Shown: positions 23,321 to 45,470 of the stretch, one piece after another
How the letters are laid out: each line of letters opens with the position of its first letter
How positions within the stretch are numbered: position 1 is the stretch's first letter
Source: Octopus vulgaris
Lineage: Eukaryota
DNA: 64,000 nucleotides
Reading direction: 5' to 3'
NCBI GenBank assembly: GCA_951406725.2
Contig: OX597820.1
Span: 108,004,001 to 108,068,000 of the forward strand
Position numbers and translations under genes: made by a program
Notes under the pieces: model-generated
What the model was told of the DNA's origin: nothing
Seen by the model: only the letters and a program-made list of their open reading frames with translations
Database searches by the model: none

Positions 23321-24163
23321 ACATCGTGACGCATATTTGCCATTTGAATATGGCTAACCCCAAAGGGTGGATGCTACTGTAGTTTGTAGCCCCAGGAAGA
23401 TACCTCCTCCAGCTGGCTGTAGACACACTTTCTGTGCCCTAACAGTATTTGTGAAGGGAAGTCATCCTTCCCGTCTTCAACTTATGATACACACGGACTC
23501 GAGTTTCAAAGTATTTACCTATCATCGGTGTATGACAATCATAGTTGTCGACAAGAATTCACTTTCCCTCACAAATACATATACTTGACACTGATATTGA
23601 AAAAGTGAAATCAAACAATGATAAATCTCAGAGCAAGTTATAAACAGTAGTGGTAACACATCGTGACGCATATTTGCCATTTAAATATGGATAACCCCAA
23701 AGGGTGGATGCTACTGTAGTTTGTAGCCCCAGGAAGATACCTCCTCCAGCTGGCAAATATGTGTCACGATGTGTTACCGGTACTGTTTATAACTCACTCT
23801 GAGATTTATCATTGTCTGATTTCACTTTTTCAATATCAGTGTCAATCGACACTGGAAAAAGTATATGTATTTGTGAGGGAAACTGAATTCTTGTCAACAA
23901 CTATGATTGTCACACGCCGATGATAGGTAAATACCTTGAAACTCGAGTCCATGTGTATCATAAGTTGAAGACGGGAAGGATGACTTCCCTTCACAAATAC
24001 TGATAGGTCACAGAAAGTGTGTCTATAGCCAGCTGGAGGAGGTATCTTCCTGGGGCTACAAACTACAGTAGCATCCATCCTTAGGGGTTAGCCATATTCA
24101 AATGGCAAATAAGCGTCACGATGTGTTACCGCTACTGTTTATAACTCGCTCTGAGATTTATCA
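23321..24163. mobile_element. Non-coding retrozyme-like element: ~1.3 tandem 337-bp units followed by ~1.2 inverted 352-bp units, one HHR per unit
   Basis: acatcgtgacgcatatttgcc recurs at 23321 and 23658. The inverted array runs 23751-24163. HHRs at 23490-23534 (-) and 23911-23955 (+): cacacg CCGATGA t aggta aa tacct t GAAAC TCGA GTC^ c(a/g)tgtg. Confidence 0.75.
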
Positions 24164-24178
24164 TCATACATATACATA

Positions 24179-24709: not shown

Positions 24710-27412
24710 GTGTGTGTGTGTGCGCATTTATATCTGAGAGTGAAGAAGTGTTATTTCCTGGTCTGCTGGACCCCCTGTGGTTTTATAAGAACTTTGGCTG
24801 TCCATTTCAATGTCACTGAGTGTGTGTTGTGCATAGGTTGGCCTGGCAAATGTCATTTGGGGTCACACTTTCTATGATCATTCTGTGGAGGTGTGTGTGT
24901 GTGTGTGTCTCTGTGTGTCTGTGTGTGTTTGTGTGTATGTGTGTGTGTGTGTGTATGTGTGTGTGTGTGTCTGTGTGTTTGGAGAAGGGGAGAGAGACAA
25001 AAAGAGAAAAGGGAAAATAAAAATAATAATAAAAATTAAAAATTAAAAAAATTAAAAAAATAAAATAAAATAAAAACAAAAAATAAAAAATAAAATAAAA
25101 AAATATAAAGAATAAATAAAAATATAAAGAATAAAAAATAAAAAAATAAAAATAAAAATAAAAATAAAAATAAGGGAGGAAGTGGAGAAGAAAAAATATT
25201 TTTGTGTGTTGATATTTATACCAACACATATATACACACACACAGACTTATACATAAAATATTTGAAAAAACCTTTTTATCGGTTCAAAATGAACAACCA
25301 AATTATACCATCTTGAAAGTTGTATGTCATAGGAAAGTTAAAATTAAAGTGACAATTAAAGGGTAAAGATGGAAGTGAATTATAAAGATAATAATATAAT
25401 ATGATGTATATAACAGGCAATACACACATCTACACACACACAGATTTTTCCTTCAATGTATGTTGAGTAAAGTTTCAGCCATTTAATTTGGGGGAGAACT
25501 TAGCTATGAAATGTTTTTCCATATTCCTCCTGAAGGGGGTGTCATTCTTCGGACACTTGTAGAAGGGAAATATCTTAAATTTTCCTTCTCCACATGTAGC
25601 TAGGTGTGTGCTTAGTGGTATTTTGCGTAGTTCTTCCTGCCGAATATGTTGTCGGTGGATCCTGGCTCGCTGGCACAAAGAATTACCAGTTTCTCCTACG
25701 TAATTCTCCTTGCATGTGGGGCAGGTTATGCAGTATATGACGTTCTGCGTCTTGCAGTTCATATCTGCATTTACTTTGAATATGACACCATTTTTAAATC
25801 TTATCTCTCTGTTGCTCTCTATGTATTTGTAGGTGGGGTTGCTGCAGGTCCCACATCTACCATCTCCGCACTCTTTTGCAAAGAATTCCGTTTTAGTTTC
25901 TGAAGAGAATTTCGCTCTTGTTAGGTGTTTTTTTAGGTTTTTGTCCTGTCGTCTACTGTTTTTTATGCTATATTTGTTTAATATGTTTTTCATTTTGGGG
26001 CTCTGTAAGGCTATTGGTAGGTTTGAATGTATGGTTTGGAAGATGTTGGTAACTCCAGGGTTGTGTGTGTTTATAAAAGGGATAGTGTTTTCTTTGTTTT
26101 TTGTTTTGGGTGTCCTGAGTTGTGTGATGTCTAGTTTTAATGCTCTTGTGATTCCATTTTCTATTAGTTTAAGGGGGTATTTTTGCTCTAGGAGGAAGCT
26201 TTTGAGTTCATCTAGTCTTATTAATCGTATTTGTGAATCAGTTACTATGCTACATATTCGTCGTGCCATACTATATGGGATGTTTCTTTTTGTGTGGGAT
26301 GGGTGGCAGGAGTGGAAATTTAAGTATTGATGTGTGTCAGTTTTTTTGTAGTGGATGTCTGTTGTGACGATGGAGTTGTGTATTTTGATGTTGATGTCTA
26401 GGAAGGGAAGTTCGTTGTGGCTGGTATCTATTGTGAAATTGATAGATGGGTGCAGCGTATTGAGGATGTTGTGGAATGTTTGTAGGTCCTCTTCTGATCT
26501 GTTCCAAAAGATGAAACAGTCATCGAGGTAGCGTTTCCACTTTTTCTTGATGTCTTCTCTGAAGTCGTGTTCGAAGACTTTCCCTATTTCGTCATATAGT
26601 TTTTTCTCCAGGAAGCCCATCACTAGGTTGGCATATGAAGGTGCGAATTTTGTACCCATAGCCGTGCCTTTTATCTGTCGGTATGTCTTGTTGTTGAATG
26701 AGAATGTGTTTTCTTCTAGTATTAGTTGGGTGGCTTGGGTGATAAAGTTTGTCTTGAAGCGTTCATCTATAAGTTCTCTGTATTTTTCTATTGATTGTTT
26801 TATAGCTTCTAGACCTAGGGTGTGTGGTATGTTTGTGTATAGATTTGTGACATCAAAGCTTGCAAGTATGGTGTTTTTCGGGACTGTATTTGGAATGTGT
26901 GTGAGGAAGTCTATGTCATCCCTTATGTAGCTTGGAATCTGTGGGCATAGAGGTTTGAGGAGTATATCTATGAAGTGGCTTAGTTGTTGTGTTGGTGCCT
27001 GGGGTCCTGCCACTATTGGTCTCATCGTGAGGTCTGCAGGTCTTTGTACTCTTATGTAGTGGTTCCTCTGTTCCTTTATGGCTCTCTGTATTTCCGAGCT
27101 TTTATGAATTTTAGGTAATCCATAAAAGTTGCTTTCTTTGGTTTGTGAGTTGCATAGATAATCTTCCTCCTTATCTGTAAAGGAGTCCTGATATTCATTG
27201 ACTAAAGTTCTAATTTTTCTTATTGTTGTTTTCTCCGGTGGTGTTGGTTCCTCTTTGTAATATGTCTGGTTGTTCAGTAACTCTAGTATCTCTTTTCTTT
27301 GTAGTAATCTGTGTCCATAATTACTATTGCTCCACCTTTGTCAGCTTCTTTTATAACGATTGATTTGTCATTTTTCAGTTTTTGTAGGGCTTGCTTTTCT
27401 TCTCTGCGGAAG
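24445..27412 (-). mobile_element. Penelope-like retroelement 1 (5'-truncated, long 3' UTR)
   Basis: RT plus GIY-YIG ORF. Upstream in-frame and frameshifted parts include [15 protein letters not shown]. Both ends abut (TA)n. Confidence 0.92.
25475..27025 (-). CDS. Penelope RT plus GIY-YIG endonuclease (partial, 516 aa open)
   Basis: RPIV, SFDVTNLYTNIP, GTAMGTKFAP, RYLDD, LPFLD, YLNFHSCHP, CGDGRCGTC, VIYCITCPTCKENYVGETG, R..QH. Confidence 0.9.
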   Translation of the reverse strand: MRPIVAGPQAPTQQLSHFIDILLKPLCPQIPSYIRDDIDFLTHIPNTVPKNTILASFDVTNLYTNIPHTLGLEAIKQSIEKYRELIDERFKTNFITQATQLILEENTFSFNNKTYRQIKGTAMGTKFAPSYANLVMGFLEKKLYDEIGKVFEHDFREDIKKKWKRYLDDCFIFWNRSEEDLQTFHNILNTLHPSINFTIDTSHNELPFLDINIKIHNSIVTTDIHYKKTDTHQYLNFHSCHPSHTKRNIPYSMARRICSIVTDSQIRLIRLDELKSFLLEQKYPLKLIENGITRALKLDITQLRTPKTKNKENTIPFINTHNPGVTNIFQTIHSNLPIALQSPKMKNILNKYSIKNSRRQDKNLKKHLTRAKFSSETKTEFFAKECGDGRCGTCSNPTYKYIESNREIRFKNGVIFKVNADMNCKTQNVIYCITCPTCKENYVGETGNSLCQRARIHRQHIRQEELRKIPLSTHLATCGEGKFKIFPFYKCPKNDTPFRRNMEKHFIAKFSPKLNG

Positions 27413-30920: not shown

Positions 30921-33297
30921 AGTACGTTTAAATATTTGTTGTGCAAGATTTCTTATGTGAAGTCGTGTGTTGAAACAGATATTGTTATATTTCGGAATGG
31001 TCATATTGCCAGTTTAGCCAATAAAAACACACGCACTATATATTTGGTGTTATTTTGCTTCAGTAATATTTATTTTTTACATTAATCTTAATCTTATTTC
31101 GGCCAGAGTTCTTTCGTCACACTCCTGTGACTGCATCAGTGGTCCTTTGTTTTCTTCTCACTTATTTGTGTCTCTCCTTACTAACCGTCAGCCATTTTGT
31201 ATTTCTATTGTATGTCTTCATTTGCGCATGCTTATATTTTTATGTGCGTCTATGTTTATTTAGTTTGTGTGTGGGGGGGATGCCTGTAATATTTGTATCT
31301 TCTGTTTATATACATTCATGTAATTTGTATTTTGTTTTCGTTGTTGTTGCTTTTGTTCTAATTTTGTTCATGTGTTTACATCCACCCATTATTATCATTA
31401 CATATGCTTGTATGTATGTATGTATAACAACAATATTAGTAATAATAATAATAAATCTAATCGAAAAAAAAAATATATATATATATATATACATATACAC
31501 ATCTATATACACATATACATATACACATATATATATATATATATACATACATATACATACATAGATATATATACATATATATAGTTATTCATTTCTATTT
31601 GTTTATTGATCTGTGTATTTATTATGTTTTCAGGATCCTCTATCGTCATATGTTGTGGTGTGTGCTATTGCTCCATTCTAGTTTTCTATTCAGGCTAGGT
31701 TTATTTTCTATTATATGTGTAGCTTCTGTAATTTGTCTAATTGTTGCATCTGTTCTATGTGTGGACAATATCTTAATCTCTATGTTATTGATTGATCCCC
31801 CGTGTTCCTGTTCGGCGTGTTGGTACAGAATCGATGAGCTTTTACCTTCCTTGAGTTGTCTCCAATGTTCATTCACCCGCTCTCCTATGCTTCTTGCCGT
31901 TTCCCCTACGTATGTTATTGTCTTGTTACTGCATCGTCCCTCTATACACCTTATACTATAGACTATATTTCTGGCTTTACAGTTTGTTTGTGGGCTAAAT
32001 CTACATACAGTGCAATAGTTATCCGTACAGAGGGTTCTACTAAAAGGATAGGTTCTACCAATTATAGATTTGATAGGGTTGCCTGGCTTTTCAACAACCT
32101 TAATTCTTAGTTTAAGTTTATCTAGGGTCCTTCTAAAGTGGTACGCCAGTTCACCTCCAGGGGTGGTGTCAACGAACATGACACTCTGGTATTTATGGCT
32201 ATCATACCAAGAGTTGGCCTTCCCTATTTTCTTTTTTGTCCTTTCTATAGTGTTCCATGACTTGTTCCTATAGAGTGGGCAAATCCCATTCCTATCATTA
32301 CATAATATATTATCAAATTTCTTCATGGCTCCTTTGTATACTCTGATCCTTTCTTTATGGCTGTAACCTGAGAACTGCATGCGGTGAATGAAATATTGTA
32401 TGTGTCTCTTTAATTCCGTAGGCTCGCTCATGTGTGACACATTTCTCATTATTCTGACGAGGTCTGCCATCAAAATATTGAATTTGGCATTGCCCGCAAT
32501 GGCTGAGTTCCGGTGGATCAGGTATTTTGAGGCCATAGGTTTTGCATAGTATGAATGAAGGATTTGGGTTTTATTTTTCACAATTTCTAGCCAGAGTTCA
32601 GTGTCTAGTACTGGTAGTCTATGGTTGGGGTGTTTAGTGGGGTAGTCTATTGTGACCTTAATACTCTGGTGGATGGAGTTAGCTATTTGCTGGATGCTCT
32701 CCATAGTATTAGTTTCTATTACTATATCAACATTACTCTCTTGTGGGGGTGCCTTTACCACTATGTTGATATCATCAACATAGCGAGAGTACATGTTTAC
32801 GAGTATGGATTTCTGCAGTAGGCGTTCTTTAAGCCTTCTGTCCCACCATACCATGAAAGGTTGGCCACATCACCAGCGATACTAACACCGATGGCTGCCC
32901 CCTCGTCCTGGGCATATATTTTATTATTAAATTTAAATGTGTGGCCTTTTAGGGTAACTCTTACACTAGCTCCTAGTGCATGTGCGATCATTTTCTTTAC
33001 CTGATGGACACACTAAATAAACATAGACGCACATAGAGATATAAGCATGCGCAAATGAAGACATATAATAGAAATACAAAATGGCTGACGGTTAGTAAGG
33101 AGAGACACAAATAAGTGAGAAGAAAACAAAGGACCACTGATGCAGTCACAGGAGTGTGACGAAAGAACTCTGGCCGAAATAAGATTAAGATTAATGTAAA
33201 AAATAAATATCACTGAAGCAAAATAACACCAAATATATAGTGCGCGTGTTTTTATTGGCTAAACTGGCAATATGACCATTCCGAAATATAACAACAT
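30921..33297 (-). mobile_element. Penelope-like retroelement 2 with an inverted 5' pseudo-LTR (~30983-31263 vs 33013-33294)
   Basis: ORFs 32797-32991 (GAAIG) and 31646-32854 (YSRYVDD, LPVLD, IVYSIRC...YVGETARS, R..EH). A ~280-bp terminal segment is present in inverted orientation at both ends. Confidence 0.9.
33131..33175 (+). ncRNA. Hammerhead-like motif with a variant core (second copy at 31101-31145, minus)
   Basis: cca CTGATG-C-A gtcac aggagt gtgac GAAA gaac TC^ tgg; identical in both pseudo-LTRs. Confidence 0.5.
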
Positions 33298-33386
33298 ATA
33301 TATATATATACATACATATATATATATATACATACATATATATATATACATACTTCAGTTTAAAACTTGCAAAGAAGGTCTTGAAA

Positions 33387-40339: not shown

Positions 40340-41190
40340 AATAATATCACTTCAGATATTTCTTCTTTCCCAGATATATCTAAAGAGGTTAAATTTGGTA
40401 GACAGGTTTTACGCACAAGTAGTTCTTGTATTCTAAATCGTGTCTGTGTGCTGACAAACGTCTGTGCATCACTATCAGATACATCGAGGTGGGTCAGTTT
40501 GGATAATTCACATAATATCGACACCAACTCATCATTATGTGATGCCCGCAAATTGTACATAGACAAGCAACGTAACCGATCTTTGCATTTTCTTAAGGGA
40601 GAAATGTCATTGATAGGAGTACCTGATATGTCAAGACTTTCAAGAGTAGGTAACTCATCTACTATTATTTCAAGTCCGTGTTTATTAAATTCTGTGTTAC
40701 TAACATTGAGGCTTTGTAAGTTTTGAAGTTTTGCCAATGATATGACCACACAATACTTGTTGCTACTAATAAAAGTACTATTACTTACATTCAACATTCG
40801 CAAGTTAGAAAGTGTCCACTCTCCAAGACAGCCAATAACATCATTTACAGCTACTGATTTCAAACCGGTTATTTCCAGTTCAGATATTTTATGTGACTTT
40901 AATATCCGTAGGCCTTTTGTTGTGAGCTGAGCATCGCGAATTGACACTCGTTTCAAGATAGAAACACTTGGGTCAAATAAACTTAATGTTTCATCATTTA
41001 GCTTACCCTTTTCACACAAACTCTGCAGAATTTGTTCTGATAATTTTCCATGAAAACAAACATCAGGGTCTTTGAATACAAGCTTCCGGTTGCTTTTTTC
41101 CACTCCAGGTTGTACCTGACACAAGTTTCCAATGTTGTCACAAATAAAATCAACACAACAGTCTTGGAGGCTGTTTGGAGTATCATACAT
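40340..41190 (-). CDS. zyg11: First coding exon of a protein zyg-11 homolog (ZYG11B-like CUL2-ElonginBC substrate receptor; VHL/BC-box plus LRRs)
   Basis: Translation MYDTPNSLQDCCVDFI...LPTLESLDISGTPINDISPLRKCKDRLRCLSM...LTHLDVSD...LPNLTSLDISGK resembles the ZYG11B N-terminus (SLLDIC; LPRLESLDISNT..ITALLACKDRLKSL; LPNLVSLDVSG). The ATG has a gcaccATG Kozak context behind a polypyrimidine/AG acceptor (exon start 41195 or 41205). A phase-2 donor TT|gtaagt follows at 40339. No downstream exon was recognised in the window. Confidence 0.9.
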
Positions 41191-42951
41191 GGTGCCTAGT
41201 AAAAACTGAAAAATTAGAAGCAAGAAACAAACAAAAATTAGAAAGAAACAATGAAAACTACCAAAGTGAAGACTGATATCATTAGAATATACAAATATTT
41301 GTAAATTTATCTCCAAGTTAAACTGGTATTATTGCCAACAATTAATAACCATTACATAATAACCAACACAACTGTGTAATTGTCTTTACATTAAGTTTCT
41401 ATTTATTTGTGCTTTATATTTTGGTTTTCTACATTTTACTGAACAAACTTCAAAAATTACTCAAAACATTTTTTAAATTATAAAAGTAACTTCATTATCA
41501 TCAGTACTTGCCTTCTATGAACATTTTTGGTTTGACAAGAGCTGGCAAGTCAGAAGAATGCACTAAGTTCTACTGTCTGCTTTGACATGGTTTTTACAGC
41601 AAGATACCATTCCTAATGCCAACCACTTCACAATGTAGACTGGGTGCTTTTTACACGACACCAGCAACAATGAGGTCACCAAACAACTTACAAAATCCTT
41701 CAACAAAGGGAGTAGTATTCAGGAAGGTGGCTTTATGCCACTTAAGAGGAGTATAAGTAGAGGGAAAGAAATAGATATCTTGAAGTTAAGAAGATAAACA
41801 GCTACCTCAGTAGGAGAGAAAGAGAAGAAAAAGAGACGAAAGAAAGGAGAGAGAAGATAGGGAAGATGTGATGGGGCAGGAAGTACAAATCCTTAATATT
41901 AGTAATTTGAAATTCAATTGATTCATATATGCACTTACATATGATATGTGTGTGTGTGTAATATATATGCATGTGTGTTTTTAAAAATCTAAGCTTGGAT
42001 TATATTGTGCATACTCTTCTATTGCAGCAAATGTTTGGATATTTCAGGAATTTGGGGTTATGATTGCAGTAAATAAGAGTAACCTGGATTGGATTAGGAA
42101 AAAGATAGCCACTACTCAGACACTCCCTTGTTGTGTCCAATCTCCCAGGTTCTGCACTATACCCAGTCCCACTTTCCAAGAATGTCAGTCGTCTGGAACC
42201 CCCTCCCTGACCATATCTTTCTTGTAAGTGTTGAATTAATAAAGTTTCCATAAGAACCTTAATGGCATCAATCTCTTGGTTTCAGAGCCCGTGATGGCCT
42301 TGGACACTTTCTGTTCCTCCAGACACTACCGGTGAAAAAGTAAAAAAGTACTCCAGATCAAATCAACTACAAACATTAAATTATATTTAAGCAATCTACA
42401 TAATTTACATGCTATTTTACCAACTGGAAATAAAAATATATCAGGAGTACATTGAGGAGTTCTCAGATGAAGTGAAGAAAAATATTTCAAGGTAAAAGTC
42501 TTACATCAAAAATGAAATGGTGATGATAGGTCTCTGTCTGAAACATTTGTCTCCACTTCTCATGTACACCCCTCTTATTTAACTATCCTATTAAGTGAGA
42601 AGTTAATCTTTAACATAATCCTATGCAACCAGAGCCAAACCCTGACATGGTAATGAAAACCAGTTTGAGGACTCACATGAAACATTAGAATTTTGGCAGT
42701 GAGTACCTGATTTTTGAAAGAAAAAGCAAAAATCTAAGTGTTCACATGTAGGTTACATGGACTTGTCTTTACCTCATTTACCATTACTATCAAGATGGTT
42801 CAGAGTTTATAATAAACAAAACCAGACACACTAGAGTAAAACCAACCACTTAAATGAGAAAACTTAGACAATGGAGGATGTGCACCACTCACAATGAGTA
42901 TAGAACCTCCAAAACTGGTGGTTGGGGGGAACCACAACTCAATGGAGTATT

Positions 42952-43828
42952 AGAAAATTACTGTTTTTAAATCTCACAACAAGAGATATTCAGTAACAGT
43001 ACTTTGTAGTAAAGGTTTTTTGCCAACATAACATGGCAGTCTTGGTTTAAGACAAATATTTCTGTAATTTAGCCCCAGGAGACATCATCTCCAGCTGGCT
43101 ATATGACATGATCTGTGTCCTTATATTTTCGAACAAGGGAATCTAGCACCCCCACTCAGCTCAAAACAATATCTGTGTATCGCGATTTCCAGGTTATTTC
43201 CCTTCATCAGCATAGAATAATTGTTTGGCTAGAGGTGGCGCTGCCAAATTTCTGTTTGAAATATATAATTTTCAAAGTAACAACTAGTCACTGATCTATA
43301 AACTAGAAAATTACTATTTCTAAATCTCACAATGTAATACGTAGATATTGTTTTGAGCTGAGTGGGGGTGCTAGATTCCCTTGTTCGAAAATATAAGGAC
43401 ACAGATCGTGTTGTACAGCCAACTGGAGACAATGTCTCCTGGGGCTAAATTACAGCAACATTCGTCCTAAACCAGGACTGCCATGTTATGTGGGCAAACA
43501 ATCTTTACTACAAAATACTGTTGCTGAATATCTCTTGTTGTGAGATTTAAAAATAGTATGTGAGCTGTCACTTTGAAAACTATATATTTCAAACAGGAAT
43601 TTGGCAGCCGAACAATTATTCTGTGCTGATGAAGAGAAATAACCCAGAAATCACGATACACAGATATTGTTTCAAGCTGAGTGGGGGTGCTAGATTTCCT
43701 TGTTCGAAAATATAAGGACACAGATCGCGATGTATAGCCAGATGGAGATGATGTCTCCTGGGGCTAAATTACAGCAAAATTTGTCCTAAACCAGGAATTC
43801 CATGTTATGTTGGCAAACAATCTTTACT
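42952..43828. mobile_element. Non-coding retrozyme-like element: ~1.1 units (353 bp) plus ~1.5 inverted units (319 bp), one HHR per unit, 13-bp TSD
   Basis: tcaatggagtatt at 42939-42951 and 43829-43841. tagaaaattact recurs at 42951/43304 and agatattgttt at 43343/43662. HHRs at 43173-43215 (-) and 43621-43663 (+): ct(a/g)tg CTGATGA ... GAAAT C(G/A)CG ATA^ cacag. Confidence 0.8.
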
Positions 43829-44217
43829 TCAATGGAGTATTTTTGATCATTTTTTCAATCCTAGTAAGTGGCCCAGCTAGAAGTCAGTCGATGGGCATAG
43901 GCTTACCAATAGGTTCAGCAATTTCCTGAACTGTTACCTGGGCTAGGTGTTTGTTGTATCTGACAGCAGGCTTCCACTAAAAAATCATTTCCACTTGTAC
44001 CTTCTAATAAACATAAAATGTGGCACTCTGCAAAGGAAGGTGCAGTAGGAAGCATTTTATCAAGATACTGTGTCACTCCCAGGCTAAAAACCTGGTCGAA
44101 ATTCTCACAAGTGCACATCACTGTGGCACTAAAGGCCAGCTAGTGGTGTTAAAGTGACAATGAAGATCTACTACATACAGAATTGTTTGAATCAATATCA
44201 GTAGAAATATACTTGTG

Positions 44218-45339: not shown

Positions 45340-45470
45340 ATTTATTCTTTTACTTGTTTCAGTCATTTGACTGCAGCCATGCTGGAGTACCACTTGAAAG
45401 GTTTTTAGTCAAACAACTCGACCACAGGACTTATTTTTTCAACCTGGTACTTATTCTATCAGTTTTTTTT
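45340..45470 (-). mobile_element. SINE 3' tail fragment
   Basis: tacttgtttcagtcatttgactgcagccatgctggagtacc. Confidence 0.75.

Follow-up and report, generated by a model that had tools for sequence, protein, structure and literature searches.

A decayed head-to-head insertion of a 353-bp hammerhead repeat in the Octopus vulgaris genome, with the marks of likely Penelope-type mobilisation

Hammerhead-bearing repeats of the non-LTR retrozyme type have been described in several animals by Cervera and de la Pena (2020; PMC7229834), with units of 350-390 bp in mussel and 331/353 bp in axolotl, further examples in coral, and circular RNAs demonstrated. Dependence of retrozymes on Penelope elements was proposed both there and in a preprint (bioRxiv 10.64898/2026.07.22.740005), which argues from co-occurrence and pseudo-LTR (pLTR) similarity that vertebrate retrozymes are non-autonomous Penelope derivatives. 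Hammerheads of Penelope elements themselves have been published (PMC4209133), and the insertions of these elements leave a recognizable footprint: a shortened inverted arm placed head to head, a tail of 30-40 nt on one end, and target-site duplications (TSDs) of 8-10 bp (bioRxiv 10.1101/2021.04.23.441226; PMC3846280). In the anole, the Poseidon protein cuts each of the two target strands and extends it; the tail is bounded by two internal reverse-transcription starts, and the process does not depend on ribozyme cleavage (PMC11167929). An older parallel is newt satellite 2 (Coats et al. 1994, cited in PMC2220036), a hammerhead repeat with an internal snRNA-type polymerase II promoter. Among cephalopods, the giant squid genome paper counted 235 hammerhead loci. 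What follows bears on two questions: by what route retrozymes re-enter the genome, and what gives Penelope insertions their inverted arm and tail. A literature search returned neither a cephalopod retrozyme family nor an end analysis of retrozymes; the supplement of PMC7229834 shows further invertebrate retrozymes, which may include a cephalopod one. The initial annotation of the octopus locus described here, which presented it as a cephalopod family not known to be described, overstated its novelty, since retrozymes of this size were already published from molluscs (PMC7229834) and their dependence on Penelope elements had been proposed; a cephalopod family did not appear in the literature found.

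The locus lies in a window of 64,000 nt from Octopus vulgaris (contig OX597820.1, forward strand, 108,004,001 to 108,068,000), whose own numbering is used throughout. Positions 42939-43841 comprise two divergent arms of one 353-bp non-coding repeat unit (GC 36-41%), enclosed by identical 13-mers at 42939-42951 and 43829-43841 that sequence comparison identifies as a 13-bp TSD. With unit position 1 set at the first base 3' of the predicted cleavage triplet, arm A (42952-43332, minus strand, read from 43332 to 42952) covers unit 199-353 and then 1-226 with a period of 353, and its 3' end is the long fixed end of the family (~227). Its outer end alone bears the 53-nt 'tail' (unit 175-227; 42952-43003, minus strand). 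Four nucleotides belonging to neither arm mark the inversion junction (43333-43336), beyond which arm B (43337-43828, plus strand) covers unit 351-353, one unit minus 34 nt and then 1-170, finishing at the short fixed end of the family (~174). The duplication, the head-to-head layout, a unit of about 350 bp that wraps past its own start and the lack of a meaningful ORF had all been recognized correctly in the initial annotation; the longest stop-to-stop frame in the element is 98 aa. The reported period of 319 can be measured in arm B but is not a unit size, since it arises from private deletions of 19, 3 and 12 nt in the 353 unit, the largest of them absent from every other locus compared. 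ARAGORN found no tRNA-like head, as in tRNA-derived SINEs, in the repeat; the closed unit has no rolling ORF, and the RT and GIY-YIG ORF between pseudo-LTRs that typifies an autonomous Penelope-like element is absent from the repeat element. The copy is situated 1.7 kb upstream of an expressed exon of a Zer-1/ZYG11-like leucine-rich-repeat gene (40340-41206, minus strand), and probably sits in an intron, because the transcript of this exon runs past both of its ends.

The element has only two complete hammerhead cores: arm A holds one on the minus strand (43210-43186) and arm B the other on the plus strand (43626-43650). The type I hammerhead of arm A (43164-43226, minus strand) combines core segments 43210-43204 and 43189-43178, with predicted cleavage after 43178, while that of arm B (43610-43672, plus strand) combines 43626-43632 and 43647-43658, with predicted cleavage after 43658. 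Alignment shows decay in both: stem I of arm A contains an A.C mismatch, as does stem II of arm B, where the stem III palindrome is also broken. The earlier assignment of a type I hammerhead with palindromic stem III to each unit thus stands as to type, but neither as to number nor, in arm B, as to the palindrome. An Rfam scan of the element gave no hammerhead match at E<=5, so the ribozyme call is based on core letters and covariation. Nine hammerhead regions, representing the retrozyme family, its sister and a third subfamily, were compared on a structure that we drew from the core; double-sided changes occurred in 13 of 19 pairs and 93.6% of cells were paired, against at most 51% in slid controls, in sequences that fall into two or three groups and hence represent few independent events. 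Across family copies the core letters are conserved at 94-100%, and all stem pairs are intact in 29 of 94 cores. The unit is accordingly predicted to adopt a type I hammerhead fold and to cleave itself. With one ribozyme per strand the copy at this locus lacks two tandem ribozymes and is therefore unable to release a monomer: it is decayed and a dead end and, taken as a single locus, ordinary. Tandem units with at least two ribozymes on one strand do occur elsewhere in the family.

That the unit belongs to a dispersed family, as the initial annotation had supposed, is borne out by an exact 20-mer of the unit, of which the 2.8-Gb genome contains 1,560 occurrences (none for the control). The family thus numbers at least 1,560 pieces; a core 19-mer occurs 469 times and the whole unit drew 3,420 candidates. 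Judged by divergence the family is old and star-like, because its copies differ by ~4% from the majority sequence outside CpG sites. Tandem dimers are rare, with 14 exact dimer matches at 12 places, of which one belongs to a related subfamily, and at most three cores in a row, and the genome search for dimers found no long arrays. One pair of loci (L047 and L048, 16 kb apart on G000:C8) represents a single insertion whose flanks are 99% identical, a recent segmental duplication. A sister retrozyme-type family is represented in the window at 23327-24165, with a 352-bp unit in the same two-arm layout and mostly inserted in (TA)n repeats. It shares 222 identical positions (63% identity) with the retrozyme family and is younger, its copies being 96-97% identical among 2,352 candidates. 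Of 43 copies, 31 have CCGATGA as the core and the other 12 have T; since the T copies fit CpG decay, the variant core appears to be ancestral. A third subfamily (L383; G000:C6:123484790-123488159, minus strand) is ~80% identical and has two tandem cores; here the hammerhead core is a C-type variant, stem III is longer and the cleavage triplet is UC.

The ends of family copies were read at 88 loci from the first 100 listed 20-mer matches on contig C1, which gave 68 distinct insertions once repeats of counted insertions were dropped. Divergent two-arm inserts make up 55 of the 68 (13 are not divergent), and outer ends cluster at two places, with 114 of 123 in unit 160-189 or 210-241 and peaks at 173-175 and 227; one end of each type (~174 and ~227) is present in 46 of the 55 two-arm inserts. 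TSDs of at least 8 bp flank 32 of the 68 inserts, compared with 57 of 2000 for mismatched flanks, and TSDs of 8-18 bp in 64 inserts are 73% AT. As expected of animal non-LTR retrozymes, the family has TSDs above 4 bp and no LTRs, and its unit lies within 150-450 bp and below 50% GC. Ends are fixed in the sister family too, at 173 and 216, with a tail of 42-43 nt. The initial annotation had claimed permuted ends and named fixed ones as a finding that would speak against it; the ends are fixed, and this points instead to Penelope internal initiation. Because two internal reverse-transcription starts delimit the Poseidon tail, the two fixed octopus ends can be read as internal starts.

The other extremity of the arms behaves differently. 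Templates continuous over the cleavage site had been anticipated, and 41 of 127 arms cross it, with exact spacing at 154 of 157 junctions (control 227 of 227). After realignment, 11 of 154 arm starts fall in the 12-nt bin at the cleavage site, against 3-15 in neighbouring bins, and three of these 11 are fold-back artefacts of stem I. An apparent enrichment of 5' ends at the site, 13 of 127 at position 1, was discarded as a query-boundary artefact that disappeared on realignment. Arm B does start close to the predicted cleavage point, 3 nt ahead of it, as had been pointed out, but starts are not enriched there and this one is probably due to chance.

Penelope insertion marks are all present, namely a 5'-truncated inverted arm, a one-sided tail (53 nt) and a TSD, and with fixed ends, divergent arms and TSDs matching the Penelope footprint, the proposal of target-primed insertion by Penelope-type machinery has held up. 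Mobilisation of this type is, in our judgement, likely. With similar assurance we regard the locus as a decayed two-armed insertion of a 353-bp hammerhead repeat with fixed ends, probably made by a Penelope-type reverse transcriptase/endonuclease that would have nicked and primed both strands. An inversion would also result from LINE-driven twin priming or from a DNA-transposon-like element bounded by terminal inverted repeats, either of which could accommodate a 13-bp TSD, and LINE ORFs are common in the window. Yet twin priming does not give arms that span the same region outward from two different fixed ends, which is what both arms do here; transposon ends would be symmetrical, there is no poly(A) or repeat tail, and 13 of the 68 inserts are not divergent. 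Such origins strike us as extremely improbable.

How the two arms relate to one another can be gauged from their shared variants. Comparison of polymorphic non-CpG sites shows the same letter in opposite arms in 134 of 171 cases, where the control gave 63% and at most 71%, and in tandem pieces in 108 of 127, a same-arm figure inflated by two tandem pairs (L004, L009) that look like later local duplications. In the sister family, agreement reaches 196 of 202 for opposite arms (control 67%) and 70 of 71 for tandem pieces. A previous same-template test confined to outer pieces gave a small effect, and the polymorphic-site test is clearer. At the locus itself the arms share no derived letter and differ by 15 mismatches in 164 sites. 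On these comparisons, both arms of an insertion come from the same source variant, whether the template was a single RNA or several transcribed from one locus. Common variant letters would also be expected if the inverted arm had been copied from the first one, by fold-back or as a second strand, through self-priming rather than second priming on RNA, as has been proposed for rotifer Penelope (PMC3846280). Against this, the 5' extents of the two arms are independent, either arm may be the longer or contain sequence missing from its partner, and palindromic junctions are few, so that we think a fold-back origin unlikely. Microhomology at the junctions shows a slight excess over the control for 2 nt or more, 54 of 97 against 37%, and none for 8 nt or more. 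Joining of the arms by long hairpin annealing was rejected, as long overlaps are not in excess.

A coding partner sharing an end with the unit was sought among Penelope elements. Penelope ORFs are abundant in the genome, and 148 GIY-YIG loci were listed from 6,136 candidates; among the 30 of these examined, no coding Penelope element has the end of the unit. Nor is the unit contiguous with a Penelope ORF in any of 258 repeat loci. A hairpin common to the retrozyme family and its sister (43070-43101, minus strand; further copies at 43416-43447 and 43735-43766, both plus) is a candidate protein-binding element; its pattern has 3,464 exact matches in the genome (control 0), and following it brought up no coding element with the end of the unit. 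The window contains two Penelope-like elements, whose ORFs have no end in common with the unit. One, at 25475-27340 (minus strand), has a 621-aa frame with Penelope-like RT and GIY-YIG; this frame matches, at 44% identity, a young family spread through the genome in which open frames of 781 aa are numerous. The other, at 30925-33300, has a 407-aa frame (31646-32869, minus strand), an inverted end, a hammerhead-like motif with a long stem II and a tail of ~55 nt by eye. Elsewhere, a GIY-YIG fragment is preceded by a minimal hammerhead-like motif whose core is a C-type variant (L183, ~position 199, plus strand).

These searches bear on whether the repeat is itself the truncated end, or pseudo-LTR, of a coding Penelope element. 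Such an origin would leave an identical insertion footprint, Xenopus retrozymes look like pLTRs (bioRxiv 10.64898/2026.07.22.740005), and Penelope fragments lie near a few loci, 130-1,250 nt away from L097, L140, L257, L267 and L209. However, the fragments near L097 and L140 are not contiguous with the unit, and the frequency of such neighbours is about that estimated from Penelope density. The arms, moreover, go on around the unit and not into an ORF, 34 of 104 core-bearing arms exceeding one unit, and no stop-free frame on the closed unit exceeds 73 aa. A pseudo-LTR origin is thus very unlikely, and mobilisation of a separate, non-coding unit by Penelope-type machinery remains our preferred reading.

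Candidate promoter elements within the unit offer a clue to its RNA. The motif ATCAGT (43290-43295, minus strand, in arm A) is common to the upstream regions of U1 and U2 snRNA genes, where it stands at -57 to -61 in 17 of 20 U2 and 15 of 15 U1 loci (32 of 35, with four distinct upstream types), and may act as a proximal promoter element; it is missing from all 15 U6 loci, on which ground a U6-type promoter was rejected. It occurs once on the sense strand in both the retrozyme and sister families (positions 236 and 238), with a TATA-like stretch (43258-43267, minus strand) 28 nt after its start, the spacing seen in U1/U2 upstream regions. From this spacing, and from where two-ribozyme arms start, transcription is predicted to begin at unit 293-297 (43234-43238, minus strand). 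Arm B has lost both the motif and the predicted start to deletion. In shuffled units the 6-mer arises in 11% and the pair of 6-mer and TATA-like stretch in 0.6%, by a TATA-spacing criterion set post hoc, and a full promoter matrix (4 promoter types) was not significant on the unit, 100 of 500 shuffles scoring as high. Among 11 clean two-core arms, four start at 295-298 (L343, L347, L349, L392), one at 315 and six further upstream, a clustering with p about 0.003-0.005. This count excludes L389, L090, L387, L390 and L383, on account of an aberrant end, poor alignment, likely duplications or membership of another subfamily, along with two arms that lack the core at their second crossing. As a separate observation, two U2 genes on different contigs (L274 and L281) have identical upstream sequence devoid of the promoter motif, which looks like insertion of one and the same element at the U2 start.

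The same arms speak to the form of the template. For arms ending at the predicted start, an uncleaved primary transcript was the probable template. Because four of the 11 two-ribozyme arms begin at that point and six run past it, the templates were therefore in part uncleaved linear transcripts. That they were nothing else, with any circles formed but not copied by the same enzyme, is an alternative whose chances we put somewhat below even. It would account for the roughly twofold rise in truncation per base at 293-311 (0.016, against 0.007 upstream), the anole protein works on unprocessed RNA (PMC11167929), and the ~4% divergence of the family means that source arrays may simply have been lost. 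What sits poorly with it is that 72 of 104 core-bearing arms extend past the predicted start and that six of 11 two-core arms pass it twice, when long arrays are not found. Linear copying from an internal promoter would also, by logic, shorten an array by one unit each round, a loss that a circle avoids by restoring the promoter. The initial annotation had suggested folding the circular monomer, which we did: the majority unit gave z -7.25 relative to shuffles and the locus copy -3.35, with a main stem that would form in a multimer too.

RNA reads are in keeping with linear-only templates insofar as unit-length RNA is not seen. Three raw runs from one study of organism B, with RNA selection not on record, gave 1,628-2,090 reads matching the unit out of 11.5-12.9 million, only 3-11 per run at 99% identity or better, and neither a sign of unit-length RNA nor a pile-up at the cleavage site; RNA 5' ends marking the predicted start were not seen either, and strandedness was mixed, one run being one-sided on the host exon and another not. 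Between 67 and 75% of matching reads run on into other sequence and look like read-through, and depth follows the shortened genomic copies, being lowest over unit 228-353. An excess of A>G/T>C changes was rejected as evidence of editing, as it also fits decay of the locus copy. A short, very abundant repeat piece at 45341-45393 attracts far more reads than the retrozyme. All in all, circles among the templates seem to us about as likely as not.

A possible course of events can nevertheless be sketched around Penelope-type mobilisation. A U1/U2-type promoter within the unit would start transcripts near 295, and rare loci with two ribozymes would supply uncleaved multimers as well as, through double cleavage and ligation, 353-nt circles. 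As the sequences show, synthesis, presumably by a Penelope-type enzyme, begins at ~227 for one nick and ~174 for the other, crosses the cleavage site unbroken and stops at random, with both arms drawn from the same variant. Joining of the two new strands at their ends would then leave the arms head to head within a duplication of 8-18 bp. The full version, in which the copies record an entire retrozyme life cycle of U1/U2-type transcription, ribozyme release, ligation to a promoter-restoring 353-nt circle, and a dimeric Penelope enzyme copying from two starts into both strands at once, is tentative, and we lean against it as a whole. Were it true, the head-to-head Penelope inversion would be tied to simultaneous two-strand priming, and the copies would offer the first footprint evidence for circles reverse-transcribed into animal genomes. 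Because the substrate is short and free of protein, has two fixed starts and comes with thousands of natural insertions and a younger sister family, both questions raised at the outset could be tested in one in vitro system.

Set against described systems, the octopus repeat is an animal non-LTR retrozyme in a new host. It resembles those of PMC7229834 in size, low GC, lack of an ORF, long TSDs and a self-paired predicted circle, as well as in its canonical type I hammerhead with a 2-bp stem III and palindromic tetraloop. It departs from them in that tandem dimers are rare and head-to-head shortened inserts dominate, with cleavage and circles here predicted only; fixed ends and two-arm inserts do not appear to be reported in PMC7229834 on animal non-LTR retrozymes. 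With vertebrate retrozymes (bioRxiv 10.64898/2026.07.22.740005, which has no mollusc among the classes it names) it shares a proposed Penelope dependence, but the octopus evidence is an insertion footprint, with no pLTR partner found, and the locus copy lacks the two consecutive ribozyme units by which that preprint defines an 'active' copy. Newt satellite 2 is a similar-sized hammerhead repeat that also has an internal snRNA-type promoter, here predicted only, although it forms satellite arrays whereas the octopus inserts are dispersed and inverted. Penelope-like elements (Poseidon, PMC11167929; Adineta Pen2a, PMC3846280; bioRxiv 10.1101/2021.04.23.441226) share with it 5' truncation, an inverted head-to-head arm, a one-end tail, two starts, AT-rich targets and a TSD, of 8-18 bp here. 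Unlike the endonuclease-bearing members of that group, the octopus repeat has no ORF, its hammerhead is canonical rather than minimal, its tail measures 53 nt against the published 30-40, and its arms continue around the closed unit.
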